The notes beneath the pieces are model-generated. The model was not told the origin of the DNA, ran no database searches, and saw only the letters and a list, made by a program, of their open reading frames with translations. This document shows, piece after piece, positions 3,101-20,201 of a stretch of DNA of 53,860 bases. Numbering within the stretch: position 1 is the first letter of the stretch; every line of letters starts with the position of its first letter. The stretch is from Deltaproteobacteria bacterium (GTDB lineage: Bacteria; Desulfobacterota; Syntrophobacteria; BM002): assembly GCA_020347625.1 (NCBI GenBank), contig CP070735.1, forward strand, positions 1,378,020 through 1,431,879. Direction: 5' to 3'. The position numbers and the translations under genes are program-made.

Positions 3101-3405
3101 GACTCAACCCTTTCTTCAGTTCCCGGTACTGTTTCTAAGTTTTGTAATCCCATCTTCCTGGGCTTTGAGTTTCGCGCAGAGCGGCAGGCTCAAGAAACAA
3201 GGCCTGGCCTTTCGGCCAGTTGCAGGTTGGTTGCTGATCTCTCGCTGCTTACTTCTTGCTGCTCACCGCTTACTGATTGCTGACTTTATCATCGCCCTAG
3301 ATTTAGCCTCAGAAAACAGAAGAGCGCAAGCAGAAAGTTATCAAACCATTCATCTCTGCCGCCCACACCGTTGCTGAGATATTGCCTCCGGTTACAATTT
3401 TCGAG

Positions 3406-3435
3406 TTGCCAACCAATCCTGATTTTTGCTAGTAT
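3406..3435 (+). promoter_or_regulatory. putative sigma70 promoter with extended -10
   Basis: TTGCCA (3406-3411), 18-nt spacer, TGcTAGTAT (-10 at 3430-3435), 40 nt upstream of ATG 3476. Confidence 0.35.
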
Positions 3436-3475
3436 CTGCCACCTGATAAACTACTCTACATTTGGATTTCGGGCC

Positions 3476-4240
3476 ATGGCAAAAGAAATTATCTTTCCAG
3501 TCTCAAATGCATATAAAACCCGCTACCTGATTTTGCCCAGCCTAGAAGACCGGCTGCATCGAATAGTAGTGGGCTGGTCGGATACTGGACCTTGCGACCT
3601 CAGCGTCTTCTGGGCAGAATTGACCAACGGCTTTATCGATCTTTTGGTAGTCGGAGGCGACAGAGGGTTACGCATTTTGGCCAATTCGGAAGAATCAGTC
3701 CCTTTCAACCCAGAAGAAATTGACCTGCCACCCGGTTGGATGGTCAGCCACGTATCTCTGGAACCTCGTGACCTGCCCCCTGATGTTTTGAAGGTAGTAA
3801 ACACCTTCTTCTATGATGTTGGCGTGGATACTTCCAAGAAAGAAAAGAAGGAGAAGGTCCGTCTGCTCTCTGACATTCACAAGACTGAGGAGGTCTGGCT
3901 CATTCTTAGTAAAGACCAGAAACAGCGCCGAGTGATCGGCTGGTCCAAAGAAGGTCCCGCCCAGGTTAACATTTTTTGGGCAAGGTTTGCTGACGACCAA
4001 GTGTCCGTCTGTGTAGCTGGAGGTAGTGAGGGAGTGCGTATCATCACCGCGGAACAGCCTGAAGGAGAGCCGATTAAATATGACAAGAACAAACCTCCCG
4101 GCATTGGGGCACCTTATTTACGAATTAACTATGGTGCTTTGCCCAACGACGTTAAAGAGAATATTGGACCTGAGCCAGAGATCGAGTTGGAAGACGATGA
4201 AGAGATCGCCAAGACCCCGCCCGATCTTGACCTAGATTAA
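3476..4240 (+). CDS. hypothetical protein with an internally duplicated domain and an acidic tail
   Basis: ATG at 3476 preferred over TTG at 3371. Two homologous modules: RIVVGWSDTGPCDLSVFWAELTNGFIDLLVVGGDRGLRIL and RRVIGWSKEGPAQVNIFWARFADDQVSVCVAGGSEGVRII. C-terminus IELEDDEEIAKTPPDLDLD. Confidence 0.6.
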   Translation: MAKEIIFPVSNAYKTRYLILPSLEDRLHRIVVGWSDTGPCDLSVFWAELTNGFIDLLVVGGDRGLRILANSEESVPFNPEEIDLPPGWMVSHVSLEPRDLPPDVLKVVNTFFYDVGVDTSKKEKKEKVRLLSDIHKTEEVWLILSKDQKQRRVIGWSKEGPAQVNIFWARFADDQVSVCVAGGSEGVRIITAEQPEGEPIKYDKNKPPGIGAPYLRINYGALPNDVKENIGPEPEIELEDDEEIAKTPPDLDLD

Positions 4241-4370
4241 GAAGATTGTAGATTTAGATTGCAGATTGTAATATTCCTGATTGCGAATTGTTGTGCTTTT
4301 AAATCTGAAATCTAAAATCTGCAATCTACCCTTCTCACTTTCCACATCGTACACCGCACATCACCCTTCC
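4233..4370. repeat. period-7 tandem arrays: AGATTGN arm, inverted AATCTNN arm, then a CACNNNN array
   Basis: TAGATTA AGAAGATT GTAGATT TAGATT GCAGATT (4233-4273). AAATCTG AAATCTA AAATCTG CAATCTA (4301-4328). CCCTTCT CACTTTC CACATCG TACACCG CACATCA CCCTTCC (4329-4370). Confidence 0.8.
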
Positions 4371-4495
4371 CTAGTTTCGGATGTAGAATTTCAACCAGCC
4401 TTGTGAGCTTCTTGACACCACGAATCTCATTCTTAAAGTTATGGATGTCAGTACATTTGGTTACCGATCACTTGGAGGCAGATTGTTAGATTTTT

Positions 4496-5083
4496 ATGAT
4501 GGATTTCATTGATTACTATGTCAGGTGCACCCATTGCAGTGCGAAGAATAAATTGCCATTAACGAGGCTCGGACGACGGCCATCGTGTGGGAAGTGCAAA
4601 CAAGAACTCTTTCCCGAAAGCTCTCCTATCAGCAGTGGGACGATCATCGTTCCCTGCAAACACTGCCAAACAAACAACAAAATCCCCCTCATAAAGCTTG
4701 CCGACCAGCCCCGCTGCGGCAAATGCAAAACTCTATTGGACTTAGATGTAAATACCCAAAGCACCCCTTTTATCTTGTCAGATCAAAATTTTGCTGAAAC
4801 TGTGCTGCGTTCACCCTTGCCTTTTCTGGTCAATTTTCATTCGCCCAACTGTGGTCCATGCAAGCTTCTCAATCCCATCATCCATAAAATGGCCAAGGAC
4901 TATGAGGGTCGCCTCAAGCTGGGCACCTTTAATGTTGACACACATCCACATATCCCCACCTTGTACAGAATAGGCGGAACGCCTACCCTACTCCTGTTTC
5001 AAGGGGGGAAAGAACGTGGTCGACTTGAGGGCTACCAGAGTTCAGGTGCGGTCGCTCAGTGGGTCCGCCCGTACGCCTGGTAG
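4496..5083 (+). CDS. thioredoxin with two N-terminal zinc-ribbon modules
   Basis: CTHC...CGKC and CKHC...CGKC modules, followed by a thioredoxin fold with active site SPNCGPCK and the cis-Pro region GGTPTLLLF. Confidence 0.85.
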   Translation: MMDFIDYYVRCTHCSAKNKLPLTRLGRRPSCGKCKQELFPESSPISSGTIIVPCKHCQTNNKIPLIKLADQPRCGKCKTLLDLDVNTQSTPFILSDQNFAETVLRSPLPFLVNFHSPNCGPCKLLNPIIHKMAKDYEGRLKLGTFNVDTHPHIPTLYRIGGTPTLLLFQGGKERGRLEGYQSSGAVAQWVRPYAW

Positions 5084-5091
5084 GGAATAGC

Positions 5092-5133
5092 AGGTAGGAG
5101 ACAGCAGACAGCTCGCAGCTGGCAGCTAGAGGT
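5092..5133. repeat. period-7 array (NGNCAGC)
   Basis: AGGTAGG AGACAGC AGACAGC TCGCAGC TGGCAGC TAGAGGT. It is the inverted partner of CTGCCCG CTGCCAG CTGCATG at 5267-5287. Confidence 0.8.
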
Positions 5134-5210
5134 ATACTTTGTTAGTTATGGCTTTTCAGTTATACGATATGATTTATATATTATAGATGATTGGTTTCAG
5201 GGTATTAAAC

Positions 5211-5292
5211 AATCCGCAATTCACAATCTGCCCTCTTATCTCTGATCTCCGACCTCTATCTTATTGCTGCCCGCTGCCAGCTGCATGCTGGA
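5211..5292. repeat. 12 consecutive heptamer units filling the spacer
   Basis: AATCCGC AATTCAC AATCTGC CCTCTTA TCTCTGA TCTCCGA CCTCTAT CTTATTG CTGCCCG CTGCCAG CTGCATG CTGGAC. Confidence 0.8.
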
Positions 5293-7266
5293 CTAATACG
5301 CCAGTTTACCAAGGGACTTAAGGATGAGCGTTATCCCCATAGCAAACATACCGGTGAGGCCCATGCCACAGGAAAATCCGGCCAGCAGTACCGGCGCATA
5401 CTGACGCCACATGGTGCCATAGCGCTTTAGAAAAAAGAAACGACCCAAAAACGCCCCCACCACTTCTAAAATCAAACCGTGGGGGGTACTCTGCCCCAGA
5501 CCCCTCACAACTCCGTAGACCAGCAGCACCGGCAGCCCCAACAGGTTAAGCAAAACATAGGTCACCAAGCCAAAGCCCAGACCGCTCAAGAGGTAGCTAC
5601 CTTTAAGCGCTTGGAAAAACAAAGAATCTCCCTCAAGCGTTGAGGTCTGCATCAAGAGGGTATTCAGGGCTTGCAGATGCCACAACTCTTGAGCGTATGG
5701 ATAGCTGCTGGAAGGAATGGGTGCTAACCGCCAGATGAATTGAGAAAAGAGGAGGCTCGCCACCATCACCACTGGAAAGACAACAATTTCCGCCTTGATG
5801 ATACCGCGAATACTTGTGCCAGTGAGTTCGATCTGGCGAAATTGAACGGTTGCCTCACCATAATTATGGATGGGAATTGGCGCATACCAGATCTCAATAC
5901 CTTGATAGCCAAAAAATTTTGCCCCGGCAATGAAGCTCGCTTCACGAACAAGGGGCAAACTGACAAACTGACCGGCGATCCCCTCCATACGGGCGGTGAT
6001 GTAGGAAATGACCGGGGTGTAAATGAACCCATAGATCAGAAAAAAGAACCAGGGGAAGTTGGGCACCAACAAGAGGCAGAGACCCGTGTAGGCCAGGGTC
6101 GAAAATACATAGATGCCGATAGATATCCAGAAATTGAAATCACCCCGCCCGGGTGGCGGACGAAAAAGCTCACGAAAACTGCCTCTCTGACCAACAGAAC
6201 TCTTACCAAAGGAGCGCAGGACATACCAGATGCCGATCACTCCGATGGCCAAACCCAGACCAATACCGAAACTCATGTAAAAATCAAAGTTGTTGGCGAA
6301 AACCGTATCAACGGTGCCCATGCCTGGGTGCCAGCGGTGCAATATTCCTTTGCTATACAGAATGGGATTGGCAACCACTGTTATGATCAACCCCAGCAAT
6401 CCACCCATCACCGCCCAGAATGGCAGAACCATGCCGAGGAAAATAAGCCCCAGATCAAACTGCAGGCCCGTTGCCACTGCCGGCAGCACGTCCTCGGTGT
6501 GCCGGGTAAGGTCAATCCAAGGAATGGGAATCAAACGGATCGGTTCGGTTAAGAGCAATCCAGAGACCGATGGGAGGAGTACATACAGAGCCCCAAAGCT
6601 AAGGCCGATTACACCGCCGATGGAGAAAACCCGCCATTTCCAACTCTTCTGCTTATCCTCGGTGGATTCGGCCAGAGCCATGGTCCCCAGCGCTCCCACG
6701 GGTGCCATAGGAAAGGGCAGCTTTTCCACATCTGAGGTGATGCGATACAGGGCGTAACCCAGACCAAAATGATCAACACGCTGAATGACCTGCGATCCCA
6801 CCAGCAACAGTATAGGAATCATCCAGTCGCGGTGAAAAAATGTCCTTTCGAGGAGTGACATGGAGGTGGCTTCGGGTGCCACCCACGTGGGTATAAATTC
6901 GGCAAGTCCCAGCATTTTTGCCGCATCGGACTGGACCAAATACTGATTCCACAGCAGACCCTGAAATGGTGATGCCAGAGCCGCACCGGCCATGTAATAC
7001 AGCAGAAAGATCTCCTGTTGTTTGAGCTCGGTGTAGGATCTCTTGGCAATCTCAGCGAAAAGAATGATTGTGACCCAGCGGGCCGCCGGGCCGATGCCTG
7101 TGCCAATCACCAACTGCAGGTACATACTGCCCGGCATCATCAGAAAACCGATGAAGATGGCCCCAACGATGGTCTTCCAGTCGAAGCCCTCCTCGAAATG
7201 ATCGGGTGTTTTTAGAAGATCTCGGTATTCCTGCAGTTCTTTGTCGTCGTACATTTCACTTCGCAC
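5293..7266 (-). CDS. large polytopic membrane protein (657 aa), family not recognised (possibly transporter-like)
   Basis: ATG start and many hydrophobic segments throughout. Last gene of the co-directional ABC/FtsX array. Confidence 0.75.
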   Translation of the reverse strand: MRSEMYDDKELQEYRDLLKTPDHFEEGFDWKTIVGAIFIGFLMMPGSMYLQLVIGTGIGPAARWVTIILFAEIAKRSYTELKQQEIFLLYYMAGAALASPFQGLLWNQYLVQSDAAKMLGLAEFIPTWVAPEATSMSLLERTFFHRDWMIPILLLVGSQVIQRVDHFGLGYALYRITSDVEKLPFPMAPVGALGTMALAESTEDKQKSWKWRVFSIGGVIGLSFGALYVLLPSVSGLLLTEPIRLIPIPWIDLTRHTEDVLPAVATGLQFDLGLIFLGMVLPFWAVMGGLLGLIITVVANPILYSKGILHRWHPGMGTVDTVFANNFDFYMSFGIGLGLAIGVIGIWYVLRSFGKSSVGQRGSFRELFRPPPGRGDFNFWISIGIYVFSTLAYTGLCLLLVPNFPWFFFLIYGFIYTPVISYITARMEGIAGQFVSLPLVREASFIAGAKFFGYQGIEIWYAPIPIHNYGEATVQFRQIELTGTSIRGIIKAEIVVFPVVMVASLLFSQFIWRLAPIPSSSYPYAQELWHLQALNTLLMQTSTLEGDSLFFQALKGSYLLSGLGFGLVTYVLLNLLGLPVLLVYGVVRGLGQSTPHGLILEVVGAFLGRFFFLKRYGTMWRQYAPVLLAGFSCGMGLTGMFAMGITLILKSLGKLAY

Positions 7267-7267
7267 A

Positions 7268-7423
7268 GCGCATGGCGCAGAGCGCTAAGCGCGGAGAGTA
7301 TTTAGGGTAGACGCATATGATCATCGAGGACGAGTTGCAGTCCTGCAAAGAAAATAAAAAAGCTACTATTCCATTTGGTTTTGTTTATTCACGCTATGCG
7401 CTATGCTCTATGCGCTTTGCGTC
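7268..7423. repeat. inverted pair of heptamer arrays (AGCGCNN / ATGCNCT) about 95 nt apart
   Basis: AGCGCAT GGCGCAG AGCGCTA AGCGCGG (7268-7295) against ATGCGCT ATGCTCT ATGCGCT TTGCGTC (7396-7423). Confidence 0.75.
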
Positions 7424-7425
7424 AA

Positions 7426-9465
7426 TTATGTGGGCAGCACCTGGTAGCTGGCATAGGTGAAAAGACCCACCAATGCCCAGCCTCCCGCCATCAGAAAATC
7501 GCCCAGAATTAAACCGATAAAGAAAAATCTTATTTTTTTAAAAAGGGATACGCCGCCGTATCTTAGACTCAAATGGTTGCAAAGCCAGCCCACCAGAAAG
7601 CTGAACCAGAGGATCCGCATGGCCGAACTATACGTGGTTAAATAGCCTATAGGGTGGATGGGCCACCAGTAAAAGCGTTGATAGAGAATCACCAGAACAA
7701 GCATGACCACAGCCCCCACACCTGAAAACACCAGCACCCAATGGCGTGGTCCTCCCGGCGCATCCAGGAGTCGCTGGACATTATCATACACACCAATAGT
7801 GGTTCGGGTGGCCCACTCCATCTGGAGTTCTCGAATCCCGTATTTGTGGCAAAGCGCCAGCATGGCCACAAAAGACGCCAACAACCCGGTGAGTATGGCC
7901 AGAAGAATAGCCACAAAGAAAATACGTTTATTGCGGATACCCTCTCCCACCTTGGCGCCATGAAACAGAGAGGGCATTATGGATTCCCTCAAGTCGACAA
8001 ACATTACCTTCTGCATGACCGCGGCCATTAGTAAACCCAAATTGGTAAAGAAACGGGAGCCAAAAAAGGCGAGCAGGCCATCGGTGGGTGCCACCGAAAG
8101 GGTAAAGTAGGCGATGCCTCCTTGGCATATCACCCTGGTCGCCACCAGCATAACAAAGAAGAAAGCGCCAAGGAGCAGAAGGGTCACCTTCAGGGACATA
8201 CCAAACTTGAGGCACCATAAAACCAGCAAACAGGTTCCCAACCAGAACCCCCAACCGGACATCCGCACAGAAAACATCTCCGATGCGGACATTTGCGCCT
8301 TCCCGGGAACAAAGCACTGCCGCACCACATCCCGGAGGTGGTAGCGTGCCAACCACAGCATGAAGAGAAAGAAAACCGCATAAGCCCCGATGATCTGCGT
8401 CTCTTCAGGGCGGGAAAGAGTGGGCCCGAAAGTAATACCCAGGGCAGCAGCAGGGATGTTGTAGCCCAGAATGGACAATAGCCCGAACAGCAGACCCCCT
8501 AGCAGAAAAAAGAACCAGAAGCTAAAGGAAATCTGGCGCGAGGTAAGAAAGGCAAAGCCAATGAAGGCGGGATAAATGTGAATCTTGAGCTTGTGGAAAC
8601 CTGAAAAAAGGCCATGTTTCGGGAAATAGGGACCGGCAAGAATCAGCGTGGGAATTTGGGGCACCTCGGGAAAATAGAAGTGGAGACCGTTGAGAAGGTG
8701 CAAGAAAAAAGTGGCCAGCACTCCGACAATCAGGAATCGATTGGCGAGAAACCGGCCGAAGCGTTTTTCGGCCAGGGCCTCCTCCATGAGCTGGGGCACC
8801 CGGAGGAGCGGAAAGTTCATCTTTTCGTTGGTAATCCATTGCTGGCTAAAAATATTCACCAGGCATAGCATCACCCAGTAGCTCAGAACAATAAAGCCGG
8901 CCCAGGTAAGTAGCGGCTGCAACCAGCGATCCCAAGGAATCTGCCGCAGGACCTCCAACCAGCCTAGCTGGCGCCCTCCCTCAAGTCCATTGTAGAGGAG
9001 CGCAATGGCATTCATATCGCCCGGATACCACCCCTTGGGTAAAAGGGGCTGAATCACCTCGTTCCAACGATTTCCAACGGTTGCGAAGTGGTAGGGCGCC
9101 GTGACATTGATGAAAAAGGTCCGAGCTAGGCCGGTGTAGGCAATTCCCGAGGCAATAACCGATATGATCCAGATCACGAAAAGCTCTCGACCACTCAGCA
9201 GCGATGATAGAAACCGTAGTCTACCCAAGGCCGCAATAGCCACGGAGAGCCAGAAAAAAATGAAAAATGGTGCGAGAGGAAAGTGACCGCCACCCAGCGG
9301 TGTGGCACTACGATAGGCGTTGTTGAATGGGGTTATGGCACAGATCAGTACTCCTAGTGCCACCCCCAATATCAAGGCTCGCAGTCTTACCCGACCTTGC
9401 ATCATCTTCACGTCCGCTTCGCTAATAACGGTCAACTCCACACAGAGACGATATTTCGTCGGCAC
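7426..9465 (-). CDS. large polytopic membrane protein (679 aa), family not recognised
   Basis: GTG at 9465 lies 12 nt after the stop of the giant upstream gene. Alternative ATG-ATG at 9405/9402. Hydrophobic throughout. C-terminal WWPIHPIGY...LRYGG block. Confidence 0.75.
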   Translation of the reverse strand: MPTKYRLCVELTVISEADVKMMQGRVRLRALILGVALGVLICAITPFNNAYRSATPLGGGHFPLAPFFIFFWLSVAIAALGRLRFLSSLLSGRELFVIWIISVIASGIAYTGLARTFFINVTAPYHFATVGNRWNEVIQPLLPKGWYPGDMNAIALLYNGLEGGRQLGWLEVLRQIPWDRWLQPLLTWAGFIVLSYWVMLCLVNIFSQQWITNEKMNFPLLRVPQLMEEALAEKRFGRFLANRFLIVGVLATFFLHLLNGLHFYFPEVPQIPTLILAGPYFPKHGLFSGFHKLKIHIYPAFIGFAFLTSRQISFSFWFFFLLGGLLFGLLSILGYNIPAAALGITFGPTLSRPEETQIIGAYAVFFLFMLWLARYHLRDVVRQCFVPGKAQMSASEMFSVRMSGWGFWLGTCLLVLWCLKFGMSLKVTLLLLGAFFFVMLVATRVICQGGIAYFTLSVAPTDGLLAFFGSRFFTNLGLLMAAVMQKVMFVDLRESIMPSLFHGAKVGEGIRNKRIFFVAILLAILTGLLASFVAMLALCHKYGIRELQMEWATRTTIGVYDNVQRLLDAPGGPRHWVLVFSGVGAVVMLVLVILYQRFYWWPIHPIGYLTTYSSAMRILWFSFLVGWLCNHLSLRYGGVSLFKKIRFFFIGLILGDFLMAGGWALVGLFTYASYQVLPT

Positions 9466-9476
9466 CAGGCACTTCG

Positions 9477-12400
9477 CTATGCCCAGCTCATTGCCGTCAG
9501 CCTTTCAGAGCTAAATTCGGTCTCCAACAATTTGCTATAGTGAGCCTGGGCCTCATCGTCCAGAGAACGCCACACCAACAGTTGTTTACGAAGATCATTG
9601 AGGAAGGCCTTGTTGATCCGTTTCCAGTAATTCGCCTCTCCTGCCTCCCGCTCTACCCGGACCTGGATTTCCAGGTAGTTGTCAGGATCCTCAACGGCAG
9701 GGCAAAATTGGAGGCTAACGAGCTGTTTCACGCCAAAATCAAAGGGTGCCAACCATACCCGGGTGTAAATCTGGATGCAGTCATTCTCACAATGTCCCGG
9801 GGCCTCGAGGCGAGATATCTCGTCAATTGGGCAGTAGAATTCCAGAGATATGTCGTCTGTGGTGAAAAGCCCGTGAGACACATCCCGATGTCCAAGATAG
9901 TATTCCCGCAAATAACCGCCAATACCCTTTTGTTCGCGATATTTCAACAGAAACGGCAAGGTGATCTTGATCTCGTTTTCCTCCGGTTCCGGCAATTTCC
10001 AGGCTCGGTATACGTCGGGAATGGCAATGTCTGCTGCCACCTTGGAAGGATAAATGACCGATACCAGTACGACCAACATCACCAGGATCATGGCAGCGAC
10101 TCCAGCCAACGAGGAGTAATTCACCGTAATTCCCTGCCACAGTGATGTGGTGGAAAAAATTTCTGCGGAGGTCTGGGCCAACAGGTAACCCAGCACCACG
10201 CTGAGCACTGCAAAGGCCATCGCTTCGGCTATGAAAAGAAAGGAGACATGAAAGGGCGCCAAGCCAACTGAAGTGTAAACACCGATTTCCCGTTTTCGCT
10301 CATAAACACTGCCAATCATGGTGTTGAGGACGATCAACACGGCAATGAGCAGGGGAATGAGTATATTGGGAACGCCACTGTAGCTCAAGGCGTCGGAGGC
10401 GTGATACATGAAAGTCCCTTCCTCTTCTCCACTGAAAAGGGTAAGGCCAAAGCGATCCACCAGGTTCATGGCTGTTGTCCTGGTTACCACCCCTGATTGG
10501 GGACTTATGGCAAGAGACTTGAGACTCCCGCCCAAGGCCATAAGGGTTTGATATGGAACGATCAGGGTGAGATCTCCGGCAACATGTTGATAGCGACTCT
10601 GGAAAGCCTGGACATCCTCGCCAGCCTCTATGGCCTCCATCTCGACCTCAGTGACCTCTTTGGCCGCCTCGCTGGGAAATATCACAGGTGTGAGCGGCTC
10701 ACCGTCTAAATCAAGAAAGCTCTGCAGGCTATCACCCCGAAACAGACCCACAACCTTAAAGGTCATGCCCCAGAGAGTCACCGTGGCTCTCTCAGGTCGC
10801 TCCAAAGAGACCCCGAGACTCTGAGCCAACCTTTCCGACAGGAGCACCACCCGCCGCTCTTCCGGTTCGAACCAACGTCCAGAACTGAGCACTGTTCCAA
10901 GGCCGCTGACCTGCGGTTCTCGATCACTCAACCCCACCGTCCCTCTTGCCAGAACTTCCCTACCCTCCCGCCGAAGAGAAACCACCATGGGCTGGGTGCG
11001 ATCTTCGTTTTCCAGCCAAGATCTGGGTACAACTTCCCCCTGGGCCTTAAACTTGTTTGCTACTGTGGTAAAAGCCTGAGGCGGCAGGCTCTCCCAGTTC
11101 AGAACTTTCAAGAGAAACCCTTCGTAGGGTGCCTGTTTCTGCAACTGCAACCGGCCTCGCAGGCGCAGACTCTTTACGGTGGTGAAACTCATGATGGTGA
11201 AGGTAAGTATGATCAAGGTCACACAGGTTAATACCGTACGAATGGGGCGGCGTCGTAGATTACTTACCCCCAGAACAAAAGCGGCGACGAATGCTTTGGT
11301 CTTGCTGATTTCGGAAGCCTTTATATGTCGGGCTCTTTGTTGGAGCTCCACCATTTCCTGTTCAAAGCGGTTCATGATGATCAAGGCTACCATCACCGAC
11401 AGACCCAGGATGAAAAAAGCGAGGATAACCACCACCGGACTGTACGTGAGCTGAAATGCTGGATGTACTTGGTAAATGAGAGCTATGACGAGACCCAGGA
11501 TCACCAGAAAAGCAATGATTCTGCGATGAATATCAACGAAAGAGAATAGCAACCGTTCTACACAATAAGCGAAGGGAACAAAAAGGGCCACGTAAAAGAG
11601 GACTCCGAACAGAACGTCTTTCTGCGTCTTTTCTACGTCGTCATAGACGCGGATTGCCAGAGCCCAAGATTTCTTGGCCTCCTCCACAAAGCGGTCATAG
11701 CGACGTTCGCTCAAGGCCTCTTCAGCCCGTTGCAGGGCCTCGACCCCCTCTTGTTGGAGTGAGCGAATCCGCTGATTATTGATCCCATGGCTCTCCAAAG
11801 CGGTTATCCTCGGCAGCAAGAGGCTCCACATATCGTGAGCTATCCGGTATTCAGTAGCCGGGATGATTGGCCAGTTCTCAACGCGATACCCCGTGCCGTC
11901 GGGCCGGGACTTTTTGGAATTGAGCAAGATTAGCTTCCGGGTGAGCACCGAGTCAGACAGGGTCAATTTGAACGGTGTGAGAGGCTCCAGGTAAATGCTA
12001 GCCAGAATGGAGGAACGGGTATCGATCCTGCTCCACCAGTAGCGCAATGGCTTGGCCTCGGTCCGCCCGTCTATCAGCTTTATCTTGGTCATGTAACTGA
12101 AGGTTCGCGGCTCTATTAGACTGAACAATGTACTCACCCTACATGCAAACATAATCAGTTCAGTCTCCATGAAGCGACGCCTCATCTTGACTCGATAGGC
12201 TGCCTTGCCGGTCATTGGTTTGTCGACGGCCCAAATAACCTCCCCGTTTTTGGGATCGAAGCGAAATCCTTCCAAAATTGCCTTGTGGATGGTGTGCTTG
12301 CTGTCGGCCAGACCCCGAAACTGAAATGAACCGGCAGTGTCCACCATGCTGTAGAATTGGCCAGGCCCTTGATAGGCAAGAATGAGCGTTCCCGAAGCTG

Positions 12401-14381
12401 GCTGATCAGGAAAGAGTTCTCCTTGACGGATAAAGTTGGCTTCACCGCTGAGTGTGGCAAATCCCTTCCGAGGCAGAAGGTCCGAAGCCAAACGGGGTTC
12501 GCGGCTTAACGCCTCCACCAGACTGGCAACCAGTTCACTCTGTTGATTGAAATAAGCCCAGTCCACCCTCTCCGGCTGATCATAGGGTGTTCCCCAAAAC
12601 GGGCGGGCGTCATTGAGCGTAACCAGGCTGAGACCGAGTATCCCGGCCAGTGCACTCACCTCACCACCTAAGAGAGGCCGATCAGGCAGGTAGCTCTGCC
12701 AGGTTCGCAGGGGGTTTGGCCGCAGCGTGTCCTGAAACAGCCGAGGCAAGCCAAGCCGCTTTTCCGCCTCGCGGCCAATGCGATTCAGTAGCTGGTCTAT
12801 ATGACCGTAAGTTGCGGTGCGGTTAATTTGCGGTTTCAAATCATACAGAAAGCCGTCGTTGAAGCCGCCAACACCGTCGCCGTGGCTGGAAAGGTGCAGC
12901 GAAACAAAAAGAGGGAGATCGTAATCACCGAGTAATCGGCGCAACCGTCGACTGCTCTTCAAGCATTTCATCTGCTCCCTGGAGTCCTCCAGAATCGCCT
13001 GGTTGGTGCGAATTGCCGCTGGAATGAGTGCCAGCAACGTGCGACGCTCATCAGGAGTAACATCCTGATAGGAACTTCGCCAGCTGAGTCTCCGCAGCAG
13101 GAACCGCCGGGCTGCCAGGTTCGCAATGAGCTGTTGGTCAGCGTCGTCCTGTTTTTCCAGACGGAGTTGCATTAGTCGCTGACTGAGCGAGTCGACTTCG
13201 CTTTTAACCTGGTCGTCTAGGACCTCACGCAAGCGCACCGCTTGTTCTCCACTCAGTTGATCCAGAGGCTTTGGAGAACTTAGAACCTCCAGCGCCGCCT
13301 CGGCCCCTTCGATCCTCTTTTTCAGCTCTTTATTCAGCTTTTTTTGTTCTTTACTTCTGGCATGGGTGGCCCAGATGAACTCCCGTATACCGGCAAGACC
13401 CTGGGCATGCCCGCTGGTCGCAACCAGAAGAACCGATCTGCCCGGCGGATGGCCACGCAACCTTCTTGCCAGGTGCAGCAGTGAAGCAATGCTACTTGCC
13501 TCATCAGTCCCTGGAGATACGCCAGTCACAATAGGAGTGCTGTCATAGAAAGCCTCCACCACGAGAAGCTGCTCTTTGAGCTGCGGATCATTACCCTCAA
13601 CTAGAGCATAAATGTTCTCGCTTTTGATCCTTTTCCAAGCGCCACTGGAGGTGACGACCACCCGGGGGACAACGACCCCGCCTGCTGCATTTTCAAAGGA
13701 ACCGAACAGGGAGCGCGCCTGGGTGAGGGGCATCCAAAAACGGGGAAAATTTAAGGAGGTGAGCTCGCGCTTCTCTGTGAAAAACCATTTGGCCGTAGGA
13801 CCCCGGTCCACATAAATCAGAGCTTTGGCGCCGAGCATGGCAGCATTTAACCAGTTCTTACCAGAATCCATCTCCATCAGGATAATGCTGCCGTTGACCT
13901 CCATGCCATTGAACTCGTGGGATCGGCCTGTGCCCACATAGAGGAGGGGGCCTTCTAGGCCTGAAGCAGGCGTGACTTCCAGACTGAGCGCATTGAGTTG
14001 GAGTGGTTTGATGGGAGTGCGGCGTCCGTTTATGGTGAGGCTCGCTTCCTGGTATTGGTTGACCGGTAGCAGGAATGGGTGGCGACCCACCTTTTGGAAT
14101 CCCAGGTCTGAGAAGGTCTGGTATATCAGGTCTGCTGCTTTCCGACAGCCTGGGGTTCCCGTGCTCCGGTCCTTGAATTCAGCAAATTGCTGGGCCAGGT
14201 CTCGACTAGAGTATGCTGCCTTGGCAGCCACAGGATGTAGCACGCATGAAGCCGTAATAAACAGGAGACCCGCCAGGGCCCACAGTAGGCTTCCGGCCAC
14301 TGCTTTTCTACGAATGATGGGCATCATCTTCATTGCGGTCCTGGAACCATTGGGGACGGCTGACCCTGACTGGAGGCTCAA
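9477..14381 (-). CDS. giant fusion protein: signal anchor, PA plus M28-like (degenerate) ectodomain, coiled coil, extra TM cluster, MacB-type FtsX permease, and a cytoplasmic C-terminal domain
   Basis: PA-like GPLLYVGTGRSHEFNGMEVNGSIILME. M28-like ENIYALVEGN...LLVVEAFYDS, GTDEASSIASLLHLARRL and LLVATSGHAQGLAG. FtsX N-terminal TM RRRPIRTVLTCVTLIILTFTIMSF. FtsX core YERKREIGVYTSVGLAPFHVSFLFIAEAMAFAVLSVVLGYLLAQ. TTG at 14381. In-frame ATGs at 14333, 14327 and 14324 are more likely starts. Confidence 0.85.
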   Translation of the reverse strand: MSLQSGSAVPNGSRTAMKMMPIIRRKAVAGSLLWALAGLLFITASCVLHPVAAKAAYSSRDLAQQFAEFKDRSTGTPGCRKAADLIYQTFSDLGFQKVGRHPFLLPVNQYQEASLTINGRRTPIKPLQLNALSLEVTPASGLEGPLLYVGTGRSHEFNGMEVNGSIILMEMDSGKNWLNAAMLGAKALIYVDRGPTAKWFFTEKRELTSLNFPRFWMPLTQARSLFGSFENAAGGVVVPRVVVTSSGAWKRIKSENIYALVEGNDPQLKEQLLVVEAFYDSTPIVTGVSPGTDEASSIASLLHLARRLRGHPPGRSVLLVATSGHAQGLAGIREFIWATHARSKEQKKLNKELKKRIEGAEAALEVLSSPKPLDQLSGEQAVRLREVLDDQVKSEVDSLSQRLMQLRLEKQDDADQQLIANLAARRFLLRRLSWRSSYQDVTPDERRTLLALIPAAIRTNQAILEDSREQMKCLKSSRRLRRLLGDYDLPLFVSLHLSSHGDGVGGFNDGFLYDLKPQINRTATYGHIDQLLNRIGREAEKRLGLPRLFQDTLRPNPLRTWQSYLPDRPLLGGEVSALAGILGLSLVTLNDARPFWGTPYDQPERVDWAYFNQQSELVASLVEALSREPRLASDLLPRKGFATLSGEANFIRQGELFPDQPASGTLILAYQGPGQFYSMVDTAGSFQFRGLADSKHTIHKAILEGFRFDPKNGEVIWAVDKPMTGKAAYRVKMRRRFMETELIMFACRVSTLFSLIEPRTFSYMTKIKLIDGRTEAKPLRYWWSRIDTRSSILASIYLEPLTPFKLTLSDSVLTRKLILLNSKKSRPDGTGYRVENWPIIPATEYRIAHDMWSLLLPRITALESHGINNQRIRSLQQEGVEALQRAEEALSERRYDRFVEEAKKSWALAIRVYDDVEKTQKDVLFGVLFYVALFVPFAYCVERLLFSFVDIHRRIIAFLVILGLVIALIYQVHPAFQLTYSPVVVILAFFILGLSVMVALIIMNRFEQEMVELQQRARHIKASEISKTKAFVAAFVLGVSNLRRRPIRTVLTCVTLIILTFTIMSFTTVKSLRLRGRLQLQKQAPYEGFLLKVLNWESLPPQAFTTVANKFKAQGEVVPRSWLENEDRTQPMVVSLRREGREVLARGTVGLSDREPQVSGLGTVLSSGRWFEPEERRVVLLSERLAQSLGVSLERPERATVTLWGMTFKVVGLFRGDSLQSFLDLDGEPLTPVIFPSEAAKEVTEVEMEAIEAGEDVQAFQSRYQHVAGDLTLIVPYQTLMALGGSLKSLAISPQSGVVTRTTAMNLVDRFGLTLFSGEEEGTFMYHASDALSYSGVPNILIPLLIAVLIVLNTMIGSVYERKREIGVYTSVGLAPFHVSFLFIAEAMAFAVLSVVLGYLLAQTSAEIFSTTSLWQGITVNYSSLAGVAAMILVMLVVLVSVIYPSKVAADIAIPDVYRAWKLPEPEENEIKITLPFLLKYREQKGIGGYLREYYLGHRDVSHGLFTTDDISLEFYCPIDEISRLEAPGHCENDCIQIYTRVWLAPFDFGVKQLVSLQFCPAVEDPDNYLEIQVRVEREAGEANYWKRINKAFLNDLRKQLLVWRSLDDEAQAHYSKLLETEFSSERLTAMSWA

Positions 14382-14393
14382 AAAGATGCTTCC

Positions 14394-15134
14394 CTAAGTG
14401 GGTCGGTGAGCAATTTCGCCAACCGAGATGGAGAGTTGTTCGCGCTCCTCGATCCTATCTATGCGACCGTCTCGAATCCAGACGACTCGATCCGACACAC
14501 TCAGCATCTTGAAATCATGGGTGGCAGAAATGACGGTCACACCCTGTTCCTCGCTCAGACGTTTGAGCAGTTCGATGATCTCTTCGCCGGTGGTTAGATC
14601 AAGATTACCCGTTGGTTCATCGGCGAGGATTATGGCTGGATCATTTGCCATGGCCCGGGCAATGGCCACTCGCTGCTGCTGTCCACCAGAGAGTTCGACA
14701 GGCTTGTGCCGAAATCGATCTCCCAACCCCACCAATTCCAGCAATTTGAGCCCCTTCTCCACCGCTGAATCGTTGTGCATCCCACCAAAAATCATGGGCA
14801 GGGTAACATTTTCCAACGCCGTCATGACTTGAATGAGATTGAATGTCTGAAATATGTAGCCAATCTTACGGCAACGCAACCAGGCCAGTTCGTAAGCGTC
14901 CAGCTGGGCAATATCCACCTCGTCGATAAAAACCTTCCCGGAAGTGGGCTTGTCCAGGCCACCAATCATGTTGAAGAGAGTGCTTTTGCCCGATCCTGAA
15001 GGCCCCATGATGGAAAGATACTCGCCTCCACGGATTTCCAGATCAACCCCGCGCAGTGCCTCCACGCTAATCTTTTTCAAGTGGAAAACCTTGGTAACTC
15101 CAGAGACCCGGACAATGTTGTGGACATCTGACAT
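14394..15134 (-). CDS. ABC transporter ATP-binding protein (MacB/LolD/FtsE-type)
   Basis: Walker [11 protein letters not shown]-loop IFQTFNL, signature [14 protein letters not shown], Walker [13 protein letters not shown]-loop SATHD. ATG 15134 is preceded by GGAG. The track ORF starts at TTG 15164. Confidence 0.9.
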
Positions 15135-15336
15135 AACCACACAACTCCACCGGCCATCACCCAAAGGAGTGGCCTATTAGCATCAGCCCGTAAAGTTACT
15201 TCTATTGTAGTGAGCTAAAATGTCTACAGTCAAAGAACTGCTCAACTGCAGAGTTAGGTTGACTGACTGGTGTTGCTCCCATTGCTGATCCAAAACTTTG
15301 AACACTTTAGCTCACTTCAGATCATTTGCAGCATGC

Positions 15337-16050
15337 TTAGTGTTCCACCCGCATGGCCTCCACCGGATGCATGCGGGCGGCGACTATGGCAGGATAGAGT
15401 ACACCAAGTAGACTTAGAATACAGCCGATCGAGGCTGCAAAAACCACGGACTTGCCCACCGCCAACCACGATAGGTGTTTCCAAGCGGTGAAGCCAAATC
15501 GAATCAGACCACTCAGCAGAGCAGCTCCGCCGCCCAGCAATGCGCCCCCACTGGCTCCCGCCAGCCCTTGCATACCCGCCTCCAGAACAAATAGGCGAAG
15601 AACAAAGCTGTCCAGCGCCCCTAAACACTTGATTGTACCAATCTCACGAAAGCGCTCGGTGACGGCCATCAGCTGAGCATTGACAATGCCTACCACACAG
15701 ACTAGCAGCGAGAGAAAAACGATCCAGCGCTCCTTGGCACTGCTTCCCGCGGATGTGGCACCAGGCTCAAGATCATAACCTGCTCGAACCAGGGCCTGAT
15801 ACAGTTGGGCGTCCTGCGTCTGCAGCATTCCATTGGCCAGATCCGCGTTCACCCGGACAAAACTCAGAAAGGAGACGGCCAACACCAGACTCATGGTTGT
15901 GATCATGGACCGGAAAAAACGAACACGGATACTCTGAAAGCTAATTTCCAGAGACTTTCTAAAAGGGAGAACCACCTGTCTGGCAATATCTGCCCCTTTA
16001 TCTGCAGAGGTCTTAAGATTCATCCGCTCGCTGTTAACTCGTTTTGGCAT
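15337..16050 (-). CDS. short FtsX-family ABC permease (237 aa, minimal periplasmic loop)
   Basis: ATG start. FtsX core TERFREIGTIKCLGALDSFVLRLFVLEAGMQGLAGASGGALLGGG, ending with YPAIVAARMHPVEAMRVE. Confidence 0.8.
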   Translation of the reverse strand: MPKRVNSERMNLKTSADKGADIARQVVLPFRKSLEISFQSIRVRFFRSMITTMSLVLAVSFLSFVRVNADLANGMLQTQDAQLYQALVRAGYDLEPGATSAGSSAKERWIVFLSLLVCVVGIVNAQLMAVTERFREIGTIKCLGALDSFVLRLFVLEAGMQGLAGASGGALLGGGAALLSGLIRFGFTAWKHLSWLAVGKSVVFAASIGCILSLLGVLYPAIVAARMHPVEAMRVEH

Positions 16051-16179: not shown

Positions 16180-16995
16180 TTACCGCACCACCCCACGCTT
16201 CTCCCTGATCAGGGTGCCCAGGTGAACGATGCGGGCATGGTTCCAGTTCTGCAAGGCTGGCAAACGTAAGTTCAAGAAATCAAAAGCTGCGGTATTCATG
16301 CGCTGGTGGTGAATCATGATGCCGCAGAGACCACTGTTCAGGCCATCGGTGAGTTCTTTTAATAAGCTGTGCCAGCTTCTTTCAGCATCGTTTTCCTTTC
16401 TGGTGTGCAGATCTACACAGACCGAATAATCAGGAACCGCAGGTGGGGCTTCTGGTTGAGCGGTCCGATCTCGGGAGAGAGCCTTATAGCCCAGGTCTTC
16501 GAGAACGGTAAGAGTCTCCTGGTCGCAACGATTCCAGGGCGGTGTGAAAACTGGCAGCAGGGCTTCACCCATAAGTGCACTGAGTCGCCCGTAGCCGAGC
16601 CGCAAATCTCTTCGCTTCAGGGAAATTGGCCGAGTTGGCCCGAACTCCTGTTTCTTACCAACGGGTTCGTGGTTGAGATGACGCCAGCCATGCTGTATCC
16701 AGCCCCACAAAGTCCTGTCATTTCCGCAAACTTCCAGCAAACAGCTCCATCTTGCTCCCGTAAGCCAACTGGGAACCACACCGAGCGTCAGCGGTACCTG
16801 GTGACGACGAAAAAGGTCGATCAACCTGGAGAACCTGTTCCCGGGCACGCCCACGTCATCCGCCCTGAAGAAAATGATCATTTCGCCACCCCAAAACGGT
16901 TTGGCAGCAGCTCTGTGCAAACAGCGGCTCAATCTTAGTTGAATGTCGGCCGGAACTTTCAGCCATAGGTGAGATGAACTTGCAGCCGGGCCCAC
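16180..16995 (-). CDS. polysaccharide-deacetylase-like (NodB/DUF2334-type) protein
   Basis: IIFFRADDVG and QHGWRHLNHE motifs. GTG at 16995 overlaps the upstream stop by 1 nt. Alternative ATG at 16881. Confidence 0.5.
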   Translation of the reverse strand: MGPAASSSHLWLKVPADIQLRLSRCLHRAAAKPFWGGEMIIFFRADDVGVPGNRFSRLIDLFRRHQVPLTLGVVPSWLTGARWSCLLEVCGNDRTLWGWIQHGWRHLNHEPVGKKQEFGPTRPISLKRRDLRLGYGRLSALMGEALLPVFTPPWNRCDQETLTVLEDLGYKALSRDRTAQPEAPPAVPDYSVCVDLHTRKENDAERSWHSLLKELTDGLNSGLCGIMIHHQRMNTAAFDFLNLRLPALQNWNHARIVHLGTLIREKRGVVR

Positions 16996-18176
16996 TAGAC
17001 TCTACCCCCCCTCTCACCACCCCATGCCTCCAGCCACCGAGCTGTCTCCTGAGCACCATCTAAGCTTACTGGAGACGAAACGGTGGCCCTCGGCTTATTC
17101 AGAGATACCTTCATCAGAGCTGCCAGCCGCGATGGTTCCAAATCTTCATCGTCCACCACCGTCATACTGCCCACGGCGGCAAGTTTTTCCGCCCGCAACC
17201 GCTGCTCGCGGTTCTGCCCAAATGGGTAGACGAGCGAGGGAACACCGGCTGCCAGTAAATTCATGCTGGTATTATATCCCGCCATACTAATTGAGAGATC
17301 GGCGGCAGCCAAAAACGAGAGAAATTCCCTAGTGAAACGAGCCACCTCCACCCCTGGCAGTGAGGCGGCCCGTTGGGCAATCGAGCCAAAATCGCCCTCG
17401 GCCATGTAGGGCCCGGTAAAGATGTGGAGACGCAGTCGTCTTTCTTCAACTAGCTGAGAATGGGCTTCAAGCACTGCCATGAGCAGCACAGTACCCACCT
17501 TGCCTCCCCCAACGCTGGCAACGACTAGCGGTTCATCCTCGCTCATTCCCAACCGTTCCCTCAACTCTCTACCAGCGTTTTCACCTGGAACCGGAGTAAC
17601 AAAGCCGGTGTAAACAACCGGTATTCTTATTTCTGCCGCGCTCTCAAAAGTTTCCTCCAGAGACACCAATTTCGGATCTGCGTGGATCAGCAACGCATCA
17701 AAATAGCGGCTAAGCAAATCCACAACCCGCCGCTCGTAAGCCTCCTGACCTTCCTTCTCAACCAGGATGTCCCGAAGGCTGCAAGCCACCTTAACTGAAC
17801 CGAAATCACCCCGACGTATACTCTCTAACAGCGGAAGCAGTTCAAAACCAAAACGTTTACGCCCAAATGGAAAGAGTTCCACCAAAAATAGATCTTGACC
17901 ATTTTTTTCAAACAGTGAACGTAGTAATAGCCTTCTCTCATCTTGCACTTCCGGGGCAGAGCGCTTCGCATCAGTGGGAAATAGACCCGTGAAGTTGGGA
18001 TCCATTCTCAGGCCAGGAAGCTTGTATTCGTTCACATGCGGCGGCAATTCCACGTCCACGGGCGGTCCGCCCGTCACCAGCACTACCTGATGACGGTGCA
18101 GCGCCCTTGCAATCTCGACGCTGCGGAAATAGTGACCAATTCCCAAAACATGCTGGCAATAATGTATTATCTTCAT
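16995..18176 (-). CDS. glycosyltransferase, MurG/GT28-like (COG4671-type), paralogue of 22652-23887
   Basis: MKIIHYCQHVLGIGHYFRSVEIARAL N-terminus. C-terminal ADLSISMAGYNTSMNLL nucleotide-sugar binding block. Same architecture as the 23887 gene. Confidence 0.7.
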   Translation of the reverse strand: MKIIHYCQHVLGIGHYFRSVEIARALHRHQVVLVTGGPPVDVELPPHVNEYKLPGLRMDPNFTGLFPTDAKRSAPEVQDERRLLLRSLFEKNGQDLFLVELFPFGRKRFGFELLPLLESIRRGDFGSVKVACSLRDILVEKEGQEAYERRVVDLLSRYFDALLIHADPKLVSLEETFESAAEIRIPVVYTGFVTPVPGENAGRELRERLGMSEDEPLVVASVGGGKVGTVLLMAVLEAHSQLVEERRLRLHIFTGPYMAEGDFGSIAQRAASLPGVEVARFTREFLSFLAAADLSISMAGYNTSMNLLAAGVPSLVYPFGQNREQRLRAEKLAAVGSMTVVDDEDLEPSRLAALMKVSLNKPRATVSSPVSLDGAQETARWLEAWGGERGGRV

Positions 18177-18218
18177 TTGTTATTTGTCATCTGTTGTTGG
18201 TCATTGGTCATCTTGCGG
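18177..18218. repeat. period-7 array containing TTGGTCA units
   Basis: TTGTTAT TTGTCAT CTGTTGT TGGTCAT TGGTCAT CTTGCGG, directly upstream of the GT gene start. Confidence 0.7.
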
Positions 18219-18284
18219 TCTTTCCTCCTCACATCCGATGAAAAATCGGCAGAGTAAATAACCGGCCAACCAATAAGTACAATT

Positions 18285-20016: not shown

Positions 20017-20126
20017 GGGTTGACCAACTATTCTTACCAGGCACTAGGCATATCTCTAATTTCGCATGTTGCATTTAATCATTAGGGATAAGGCGCAAAA
20101 ACTATAACGAATGTTATTCTCCACTG

Positions 20127-20161: not shown

Positions 20162-20201
20162 ACACTAGGCAGCATCCCATTTCTTAGTAGTGCTGTTTAC
20201 G

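Follow-up and report, generated by a model that had tools for sequence, protein, structure and literature searches.

Gene content of the locus

The window analysed in this work is a stretch of 53,860 nucleotides (nt) from the genome of a Deltaproteobacteria bacterium (assembly GCA_020347625.1, contig CP070735.1, positions 1,378,020 to 1,431,879 of the forward strand), and the system in question is a minus-strand gene cluster that encodes an ATP-binding cassette (ABC) module of the MacB/FtsX type (type VII) together with two polytopic membrane proteins. Our analysis shows that the five genes of this cluster account for most of an envelope system that is conserved in at least four bacterial phyla. 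The five open reading frames (ORFs) proposed in the initial annotation were all borne out at their coordinates. The first (15337-16050) encodes a short FtsX-type permease of 237 amino acids (aa; Pfam FtsX, E 9.9e-11) and is followed by a spacer (15135-15336, no strand assigned) that holds an imperfect inverted repeat and a match to a sigma-70-like consensus. The second is the gene for an ABC ATPase of the LolD/MacB/FtsE clade (14394-15134; ABC_tran, E 5.9e-34), whose ORF extends to 15164 (256 aa); translation probably starts at the ATG at 15134, giving a protein of 246 aa, and relatives mostly have about 245 aa. The third (9477-14381) is a single and intact ORF for a giant fusion protein of 1634 aa, for which the database copy starts 22 codons after the ORF start.

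The two polytopic proteins complete the set. A protein of 679 aa (7426-9465) carries the Pfam domains DUF6785 and DUF6784, and a divergent member of the OPT superfamily, assigned through its homology to OPT members, is encoded at 5293-7266 in an ORF of 657 aa; its start is probably the ATG at 7254, which yields 653 aa, the length seen in relatives. The ATPase and giant genes are separated by 12 nt, the giant and 679-aa genes by 11 nt (and not 12 nt, as first given), and the two polytopic genes by 159-171 nt, depending on the start chosen. Two further minus-strand genes lie beyond them and belong to the same system: one for a soluble protein of about 300 aa (1779-2687), recognised by synteny and free of any family match, with conserved CxxC, DH and RW motifs, and one for a PqqD-like protein of 142 aa (1364-1792; Pfam PqqD, E 7.6e-10), of the type known as the RRE, a peptide-binding domain. 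The ATG of the latter overlaps the stop of the former by 14 nt, and in the window this pair is cut off from the OPT-like gene by two plus-strand genes. On the other side, the cluster is preceded by a glycosyltransferase (GT) island, also on the minus strand (16180-23899), with Pfam matches to two GT28-like and two GT4-type enzymes, a histidine phosphatase, a metallophosphoesterase and a 271-aa protein with a weak DUF2334 match.

A core gene set shared by four phyla

A scan of GTDB with one genome per species identified 416 loci that encode a relative of the giant protein. Gene order in the Desulfobacterota was assessed on the best 80 of these 416 loci, all of them from metagenome-assembled genomes (MAGs) of Syntrophobacterales, Desulfobacterales, Desulfarculia and Desulfatiglandales, and the denominators given here are the loci with enough flanking sequence. 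All named members of the cluster come likewise from MAGs, and no cultured host was found among them. The order short FtsX, ATPase, giant, DUF6785, OPT-like is kept in nearly all of the Desulfobacterota loci with enough flank: the ATPase gene is present in 63 of 65 loci, the short FtsX gene, next to that of the ATPase, in 56 of 60, the DUF6785 gene, next to that of the giant, in 51 of 57 and the OPT-like gene in 42 of 47. The conserved neighbourhood that the initial annotation had asked about is thus present in most related loci and does not reflect chance, and the synteny of the two polytopic genes with the ABC genes extends across hundreds of genomes. The pair formed by the ~300-aa and PqqD-like genes is found downstream in 30 of 38 loci, and the GT island upstream in most of them (GT28b in 34 of 43, histidine phosphatase in 30 of 43), being divergently oriented in four cases (L052, L056, L062 and L076).

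The search was carried to other phyla through a 41%-identical relative of the OPT-like protein. In the Armatimonadota, two loci (L085 and L086) present the order giant, OPT-like, ~300-aa, PqqD-like, short FtsX and ATPase. A third (L087) contains the same genes with a 5-kb insertion at the junction between the OPT-like and ~300-aa genes, which is the same junction that is interrupted in the window, by a different insertion, and a fourth, on a partial contig (L088), runs from the OPT-like gene to the gene after PqqD. In this phylum, the four genes from the ~300-aa gene to the ATPase gene are packed closely or overlap. The Lentisphaerae locus (L090) is arranged as ~300-aa, PqqD-like, a 492-aa FtsX (1449-2927), ATPase, giant and OPT-like, with a second ABC ATPase gene after the OPT-like gene, and the Poribacteria locus (L089) as a giant of 2335 aa, a 58-aa ORF, OPT-like, ~300-aa, PqqD-like and ATPase. 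Neither DUF6785 nor the GT island was present at the Armatimonadota, Poribacteria and Lentisphaerae loci examined; both were seen only in the Desulfobacterota.

Since this gene set is shared by four phyla, the cross-phylum core consists of the giant, OPT-like, ~300-aa and PqqD-like proteins and the ATPase, usually with a second FtsX. The five-gene unit described originally must hence be redrawn: the ~300-aa and PqqD-like genes (1364-2687) belong to the core, and DUF6785 is confined to the Desulfobacterota. The GT island, proposed at the outset as a meaningful neighbour, holds that position in the Desulfobacterota and not at the loci of other phyla. As seen in these loci, DUF6785/DUF6784 and the GT island are additions of the Desulfobacterota to the core, and the length of a helical insertion in the ectodomain of the giant protein varies between phyla.

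The members of the cluster differ markedly in their rate of divergence. In loci whose giant is less than 60% identical to that of the window, the median identity is 85% for the OPT-like protein, 81% for the ATPase, 66% for the short FtsX, 63% for DUF6785, 55% for the giant, 45% for the PqqD-like and 35% for the ~300-aa protein. The divergence of the giant rules out a recent transfer of the whole cluster. Judged by these identities across Desulfobacterota orders, the OPT-like protein is the most conserved product of the cluster, above even the ABC ATPase, which is unusual for a polytopic, transporter-like protein, and a constraint of this kind fits a protein held by many contacts.

The giant protein: a degenerate M28-like ectodomain

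The initial annotation had described the giant as a fusion of an ectodomain, a coiled coil and an extra cluster of transmembrane segments (TMs) with a complete FtsX permease, and each of these parts could be located. Relatives align over their full length at 55-93% identity, and in the three other phyla at 26-34% identity over ~1460-1590 aa. Pfam detects a partial Peptidase_M28 domain at residues 256-341, a weak PA domain and FtsX at 1342-1449, and hydropathy places an anchor TM at residues 26-53, followed by an ectodomain of about 870 residues (54-920). Residues 45-925 were modelled confidently with AlphaFold2 on the basis of 47 homologues (pLDDT 85.7, pTM 0.85). In Foldseek searches, its first ~580 residues (about 60-625 of the giant) match PA-domain M28 proteins with E values between 1e-19 and 1e-14; the best matches are the aminopeptidases 2ek8, BSAP (6hc6) and PaAP (8acr), followed by the transferrin receptor TfR1 and GCPII/III. 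The model thus predicts a periplasmic PA plus M28-like domain with a non-canonical active site at residues 54-640 (12462-14222, minus strand, as are all segments of the giant), which is interrupted at residues ~338-485 (12927-13370) by a long, coiled-coil-like helical insertion, visible in the model as helices at model positions 286-440 (about 330-485 of the protein). Residues 641-920 (11622-12461), subdivided on the DSSP assignment of the model into a beta-rich domain (~641-834) and a helical hairpin that runs into the membrane (~843-924), are conserved across phyla; they have no Pfam match, and neither the beta-rich domain nor the hairpin could be placed in a fold. The helical insertion measures 143 aa here, ~25 aa in Armatimonadota, ~180 aa in Lentisphaerae and ~450 aa in Poribacteria. 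A coiled coil as the defining feature of the core is therefore ruled out by its near absence in the Armatimonadota. The Poribacteria giant (2335 aa, 2751-9758 of its locus) also matches LysM in part, with a score that exceeds the cut-off (E 1.2e-8).

The M28 site was compared by aligning the giant of the window with 2ek8, BSAP, 25 Desulfobacterota homologues, three Armatimonadota giants and those of Poribacteria and Lentisphaerae. The first ligand, a histidine in canonical enzymes, is Phe, Tyr or Leu in the giants (HxD becoming (F/Y/L)xD), and the bridging Asp is Asp, Glu or Arg. The catalytic Glu is replaced by Gly, Ala or Gln (EE becoming GH, AH or QE), while the ligand Glu is His in three phyla and Glu in Lentisphaerae. 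The second Asp is His in the window, Asp in Armatimonadota and Poribacteria, and Met in Lentisphaerae, and the last His is absent from the giants of all four phyla examined, being replaced by A, S or S-L. On these motif states an active M28 aminopeptidase was rejected, for no lineage retains a working set. With the canonical catalytic Glu and most metal ligands lost, the domain is, on these alignments, more likely to be a binding or scaffold module than a hydrolase. The earlier view of an effector-like ectodomain fused to the permease stands as regards the fusion and the PA/M28 fold; the effector part calls for revision, the canonical catalytic Glu and most ligands being missing in every lineage checked.

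The giant protein: membrane part and cytoplasmic tail

The C-terminal part of the giant begins with an extra cluster of three TMs at residues 921-1007 (11361-11621), delimited by hydropathy (TMs at 921-1004) and highly conserved, with many invariant columns. It is followed by a MacB-type FtsX module at residues 1046-1454 (10020-11246; Pfam FtsX, E 9.4e-11), which comprises TM1 (1046-1072), a periplasmic core domain (1073-1330) and three further TMs (1331-1454), and by a conserved tail of about 180 aa (1455-1634; 9480-10019) that replaces the ~220 aa first estimated. On the hydropathy topology, the linker before TM1 and the tail would be cytoplasmic, as in MacB. A model of residues 905-1634 reaches a pLDDT of 68 overall, the periplasmic domain being confident and the tail scoring about 70-86. 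For this half Foldseek retrieves MacB (5gko, 2e-9), a pneumococcal MacB-like protein (5xu1) and isolated MacB periplasmic domains (5c59 and 5lj8); sequence matches of the giant in the PDB include MacB, YtrF, FtsX and LolC, and relatives match MacB_PCD in Pfam. Taken together with the ectodomain, these domain and fold matches bear out the proposal of a type VII module in which a PA/M28-like ectodomain is fused to a MacB-like permease.

All four phyla conserve the three extra TMs, the FtsX module and the tail. The tail carries motifs, among them APFDxG and LRKQxLxWR, that are invariant across these phyla, and its predicted structure has the succession beta-alpha-beta4-alpha2. No PDB sequence match was obtained for the tail family, and fold matches are weak (START/Bet v 1-like, E 0.008-0.04) and serve only as a lead.

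The membrane part of the giant also matches a model of PADLOC, PDLC01991 ('CARF_m8--CARF_LolE_TM'), over residues 873-1484 with E 5.9e-54 (profile positions 25-584 of 810). The match spans the helical hairpin, the three extra TMs and the FtsX module, and in Armatimonadota the tail of the giant extends it over profile positions 533-683; beyond position ~684, that is, for the last ~125 positions, the profile has no counterpart in the giant or its relatives. A second model, PDLC01990 ('CARF_Beta-galactosidase_LolE_TM'), is matched more weakly, which suggests sister proteins with a different hydrolase-like ectodomain. The membrane part of this family has therefore already been catalogued in PADLOC, alongside sister proteins that bear other ectodomains. 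The paper behind the CARF_m8 models is, we believe, Makarova et al. 2020. Within the cluster, only the giant and the short FtsX match any PADLOC model, and they do so through their FtsX/TM part.

The ABC motor

The window cluster contains two FtsX genes and one ATPase gene. The short FtsX has four TMs, with the Pfam domain at residues 110-229, and since hydropathy sets TM1 and TM2 only about 37 aa apart, this protein would have no periplasmic domain, in agreement with the almost absent loop noted originally. Its length in Armatimonadota is 210-234 aa. The ATPase was correctly assigned to the MacB/LolD/FtsE type: besides ABC_tran, its best NCBIfam models are LolD (7.9e-67), MacB (2.4e-62) and FtsE (6e-60), with DarD and DevA also among the best. 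Every score is below the respective equivalog cut-off, and hence the protein is a member of the clade without being LolD, DarD, MacB, FtsE or DevA itself. The translation shows intact Walker A, signature, Walker B and H-loop motifs. The asymmetric pair of a short and a giant FtsX inferred from the window agrees with the presence of two FtsX genes there, and it does not extend unchanged to other phyla, given that the partner in Lentisphaerae has 492 aa and none is adjacent in the Poribacteria locus. Neither the ORFs scanned in the window nor the related loci with Pfam listings include a gene for a membrane-fusion protein (MacA/HlyD) or a TolC-type outer-membrane protein.

The two polytopic membrane proteins

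The profile hidden Markov model searches suggested for the five proteins returned FtsX, M28, PA, ABC_tran and DUF6785/DUF6784, and they modify the claim that both polytopic proteins belong to unrecognised families. The 679-aa protein is matched by two Pfam families, DUF6785 (E 4.1e-166) and DUF6784 (E 1.3e-34), on neither of which a paper was found in the literature. The 653-aa protein itself has no Pfam or NCBIfam match, and neither polytopic protein matches OPT at E <= 0.1; orthologues of the 653-aa protein bear the NCBI label 'peptide transporter', and an exhaustive search yields 1014 representative relatives. Three of them (P0335, P0338 and P0360) align with residues ~20-653, end to end, at ~30% identity (E 1e-50 to 1e-62), and pass the gathering score of Pfam OPT (PF03169) over profile positions ~104-622 of 623. 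OPT is also matched by 19 of 42 sampled distant members of the family. By this full-length homology to proteins that pass the OPT threshold, and by the 19 OPT matches, the 653-aa protein is classed as a divergent branch of the OPT superfamily. The initial annotation had foreseen that the polytopic proteins might belong to a family such as OPT and be unlinked to the ABC genes elsewhere; the OPT-like gene is syntenic with them in four phyla.

The relationship between the two polytopic proteins is much less clear. BLASTP finds nothing significant between them, and hhalign produces a collinear alignment of the two families over 556 columns with a score of 31.1 and a probability of only 4.7%; ten controls with reversed or block-shuffled sequences score 19-25 over 16-70 columns. 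Both proteins share an E-K/R-L/M-x-F-P motif. The DUF6785/DUF6784 protein may be a very remote OPT relative, on what is weak evidence from alignment. PDB sequence searches with the 679-aa and 653-aa proteins and with the profile of the OPT-like family gave no usable match.

The ~300-aa and PqqD-like partners

Both of these partners are small, cytoplasmic proteins. The PqqD-like protein scores 39.4 bits against Pfam PqqD (cut-off 23.4) and has weak NCBIfam matches to the PqqD-type chaperones of lasso and SCM systems. The ~300-aa family has Trp, Gly, Pro, Cys (CxxC), Asp, Arg-Trp and Asn among its invariant positions, and no match in Pfam, NCBIfam, PADLOC or the PDB.

Other genes lie around this pair. 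The two plus-strand genes that separate it from the OPT-like gene in the window encode a 289-aa protein with no family match (3371-4240) and a thioredoxin-2-like protein (4496-5083), and Syntrophobacterales-type loci keep both at this position, with an identity of 79-82% for the 289-aa protein (97% in L005). A hydrophobic ORF of ~125 aa (2725-3100, minus strand) lies directly upstream of the ~300-aa gene, with a tblastn match only in the closest relative, L005. In the Desulfobacterales loci L001-L003 (~21.3-22.8 kb), a STAS/HATPase_c_2 pair (anti-sigma antagonist and kinase), a cNMP-binding protein and an ABC exporter are encoded just downstream of the PqqD-like gene, with one methyltransferase gene in between in L003; a STAS/HATPase_c_2 pair is also present in the window (52906-53851, minus strand), ~50 kb from the cluster.

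The spacer between the short FtsX and ATPase genes

The 10-bp inverted repeat reported in this spacer (15210-15219 and 15306-15315) is present and longer than stated, extending to arms of 25 nt with 80% complementarity (15206-15230 and 15295-15319). The sigma-70-like consensus match lies at 15233-15204. The repeat is built from an RTGNCTAAA-type unit, and close relatives (L006, L008, L012 and L033) carry direct as well as inverted arrays of this unit in the corresponding spacer. In length the spacer ranges from 0 to 606 nt, and it is not conserved in distant loci. A structured RNA or riboswitch was considered and rejected, given the lack of an Rfam match in the window, a folding z score of -1.33 against shuffled sequences and the missing conservation of the spacer. 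The window holds further intergenic tandem repeats, many of them of 7-nt units in 3-6 copies (4243-4328, 5233-5290, 7392-7421, 22375-22406, 31658-31690, 37963-37990 and 42823-42868), some of them as inverted pairs (e.g. 4243-4270 and 4301-4328). The inverted repeat of the spacer seems to be the same kind of element as these frequent short intergenic repeats.

Other genes of the window

Three further items, all on the minus strand, lie outside the cluster. The first (44699-47011) encodes a 770-aa protein that joins a PALP (cysteine-synthase-like) domain to a complete class-I cysteinyl-tRNA synthetase. At 35023-37789, a Memo and AMMECR1 fusion protein adjoins a radical SAM protein, an arrangement that we presume to be akin to the 'AmmeMemoRadiSam' trio, with two of its members fused here. 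The third (26872-29769) is a 965-aa DEAD-box helicase with an MrfA-type Zn-binding domain and a C-terminal RNase_H_2 domain.

Discussion

Relation to known type VII systems

The type VII ABC systems form a small and well-studied set (MacB, LolCDE, FtsEX, BceAB and HrtBA), each of which performs a different mechanical work outside the cytoplasm. With MacB (MacAB-TolC), LolCDE and DevBCA, the system described here shares a four-TM FtsX permease with a MacB-like periplasmic core between TM1 and TM2, and an ATPase of the LolD/MacB/FtsE clade; with LolC/LolE/LolD it shares two different permease genes served by one ATPase gene. As opposed to these systems, the giant adds ~1000 N-terminal residues (the PA/M28-like domain, the beta-rich domain and three TMs) and a cytoplasmic tail of 180 aa, its partner permease in the window would be devoid of a periplasmic domain, no MacA-type adaptor or TolC-type gene is nearby, and the OPT-like, PqqD-like and ~300-aa proteins are constant partners. 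FtsEX, with EnvC, PcsB or RipC, offers a second parallel, the shared logic being that of an ABC motor coupled to a periplasmic domain which derives from a peptidase, is apparently non-catalytic and includes a long helical element. Nonetheless, the domain of the giant resembles M28 and not LytM or CHAP, and a covalent fusion joins it to the permease; its helical element ranges from ~25 to ~450 aa between phyla, and the locus is not a division locus.

The individual components depart from their families in a similar way. The transferrin receptor likewise keeps the PA/M28 fold without the catalytic set, whereas the giant differs from PA-domain M28 proteins in the replacement of the ligands and catalytic Glu, in its helical insertion and in being membrane-tethered at both ends within an ABC permease. 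Compared with the OPT/YSL superfamily, the 653-aa protein does not reach the Pfam OPT threshold, keeps a fixed syntenic link to an ABC system and evolves much more slowly than its neighbours; to our knowledge, no member of this branch has been studied. In contrast to PqqD-type elements that recognise ribosomally synthesised and post-translationally modified peptides (RiPPs), the PqqD-like protein has an N-terminal extension, is accompanied by the ~300-aa protein instead of a known maturase, and stands with an ABC system and no visible precursor gene. Finally, the giant strongly matches the CARF_m8--CARF_LolE_TM model in its membrane part, and yet has no defence context here. The initial statement that the architecture corresponds to no characterised system is sustained by the literature searched (FtsX with M28 and Desulfobacter, PqqD with FtsX and optionally M28, CARF with LolE), and the combination of FtsX, OPT family and M28 returned nothing relevant, only one unrelated transport-genomics paper. 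The system is hence a type VII ABC machine with an unprecedented set of conserved partners, and more general than was first held.

A tentative model of function

Among the functions that could be assigned to this set of genes, the one that we favour, although tentatively and at somewhat less than even chances, is mechanotransmission by a type VII ABC machine that, jointly with the OPT-like protein, would handle an envelope ligand containing a peptide. By analogy with MacB, LolCDE and FtsEX, a dimer of the ATPase would sit on the FtsX pair, here the short and the giant protein, and ATP binding and hydrolysis would move the MacB-like periplasmic domain and, through it, the ectodomain, so that the work done would be mechanotransmission and not transport through the permease. 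The M28-like domain would most likely act as a receptor or clamp, in the manner of the transferrin receptor or of the degenerate LytM domain of EnvC. More speculatively, its ligand might be a peptide-containing molecule of the envelope, which might be handed to, or taken from, the adjoining OPT-like transporter, while the PqqD-like and ~300-aa pair might handle the peptide, or the tail of the giant, on the cytoplasmic side. The link to peptides draws on OPT membership and on a PqqD domain above the Pfam cut-off, and the envelope context on the LysM match of the Poribacteria giant and on the envelope and glycan genes found beside the cluster in several lineages.

Several observations weigh against this proposal. 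OPT proteins (TC 2.A.67) are normally autonomous, proton-driven importers, and there is no direct evidence for contact between the OPT-like protein and the ABC complex; in four of ~47 loci (L020, L030, L039 and L045), moreover, the DUF6785 and OPT-like genes are not beside the ABC genes. The cluster has no conserved substrate. RiPP enzymes, the usual partners of PqqD-like proteins, are missing here, and no known maturase or conserved small ORF that could encode a precursor was present at the loci of the four phyla. The residues that replace the M28 ligands differ between phyla, leaving a shared binding site itself unproven, the TM part of the C-terminal model of the giant is of low confidence (pLDDT 40-60), and the Poribacteria locus has no adjacent second FtsX.

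A bolder version of this mechanism, which we consider doubtful, would have the type VII motor physically coupled to an OPT channel: movements of the pseudo-peptidase receptor would load or gate the OPT-like protein, and the PqqD-like and ~300-aa pair would receive or deliver the peptide cargo. If true, this would constitute a new combination of primary and secondary transporter, and provide a first function for a bacterial branch of OPT, for the ~300-aa family and, in the Desulfobacterota, for DUF6785/DUF6784.

Alternative explanations

The GT island invites a different reading, already advanced in the initial annotation and in our estimate unlikely, namely the export of a glycoconjugate or glycolipid. 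The island would make a glycan, either lipid-linked or lipid-anchored, for translocation by the OPT-like and DUF6785 proteins. The ABC machine would extract this glycan from the inner membrane at its outer leaflet, in the way that DevBCA extracts heterocyst glycolipids or LolCDE lipoproteins. The island is indeed conserved in the Desulfobacterota (GT28b in 34 of 43 loci and the histidine phosphatase in 30 of 43), even where it is divergently oriented; in the Poribacteria locus, the cluster is followed by genes for polysaccharide export of the Wza/Wzz type, the ATPase scores well against the NCBIfam model DevA, and the weak matches to the START-like, lipid-binding fold probably concern the tail. 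The Armatimonadota and Lentisphaerae loci, however, keep the core genes without a GT island. Moreover, OPT proteins are known for peptides and metal chelates and not for lipid-linked glycans, the PqqD-like protein points to a peptide ligand, and no membrane-fusion or outer-membrane partner is encoded in the window.

Less probable again is a role in cell-wall remodelling along the lines of FtsEX, in which the ABC motor would switch a catalytically dead, peptidase-like domain that bears a coiled coil, much as with EnvC or PcsB. That domain would activate a separate periplasmic peptidoglycan hydrolase, with the OPT-like protein taking up the peptides released. EnvC combines a dead LytM domain with a coiled coil, which the degenerate peptidase-like domain and long helical insertion of the giant recall. 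The LysM match in the Poribacteria giant would agree with such a role, as would NamZ (an exo-MurNAc-ase), whose gene adjoins the GT island in the window and in Syntrophobacterales-type loci, and the SPOR and FtsZ genes near the cluster in one Armatimonadota locus (L085). These cell-wall neighbours, nevertheless, vary by lineage and could be due to chance, the Armatimonadota have almost no helical insertion, the cluster lacks a conserved hydrolase partner, and the ~300-aa and PqqD-like proteins would be left unexplained.

The presence of a PqqD domain, with its weak similarity to lasso and SCM chaperones, could also be taken to indicate the maturation and export of a RiPP-like product: the PqqD-like protein would bind a leader peptide, the ~300-aa protein would be a new modifying enzyme, and the MacB-type pump and the OPT-like protein would carry out export. 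MacB-type pumps do export peptides, DarD, the ATPase of the darobactin exporter, is a good NCBIfam match, and radical SAM genes occur within 10 kb of the cluster in two Armatimonadota loci. We nonetheless regard this reading as improbable, for the cluster has neither a conserved precursor gene nor a known maturase, the radical SAM neighbours are not conserved, and the very slow evolution of the OPT-like protein and the ATPase, together with a broad and vertical-looking distribution, is unlike that of typical RiPP clusters. Finally, the name of the PADLOC model would make the giant a nucleotide-sensing membrane effector of a defence system, which is very improbable despite the strength of the match (E 5.9e-54) and its extension into the Armatimonadota tail (profile positions 533-683), as the match covers the TM/FtsX part and nothing beyond position ~684 of 810, the predicted structure of the tail gives no support to a Rossmann-like CARF fold, no CRISPR or cyclic-oligonucleotide genes were seen in the window or the related loci examined, the other cluster proteins are without PADLOC matches, and sequence conservation as strong as this is not typical of defence genes.

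Significance

The system provides a further type VII architecture with fixed partners, present in hundreds of species of Desulfobacterota as well as in Armatimonadota, Poribacteria and Lentisphaerae. Solving it would assign functions to a bacterial branch of the OPT superfamily, to two Pfam DUFs and to an unnamed family of ~300-aa proteins, and would test whether an ABC motor can be coupled to the fold of a secondary transporter.

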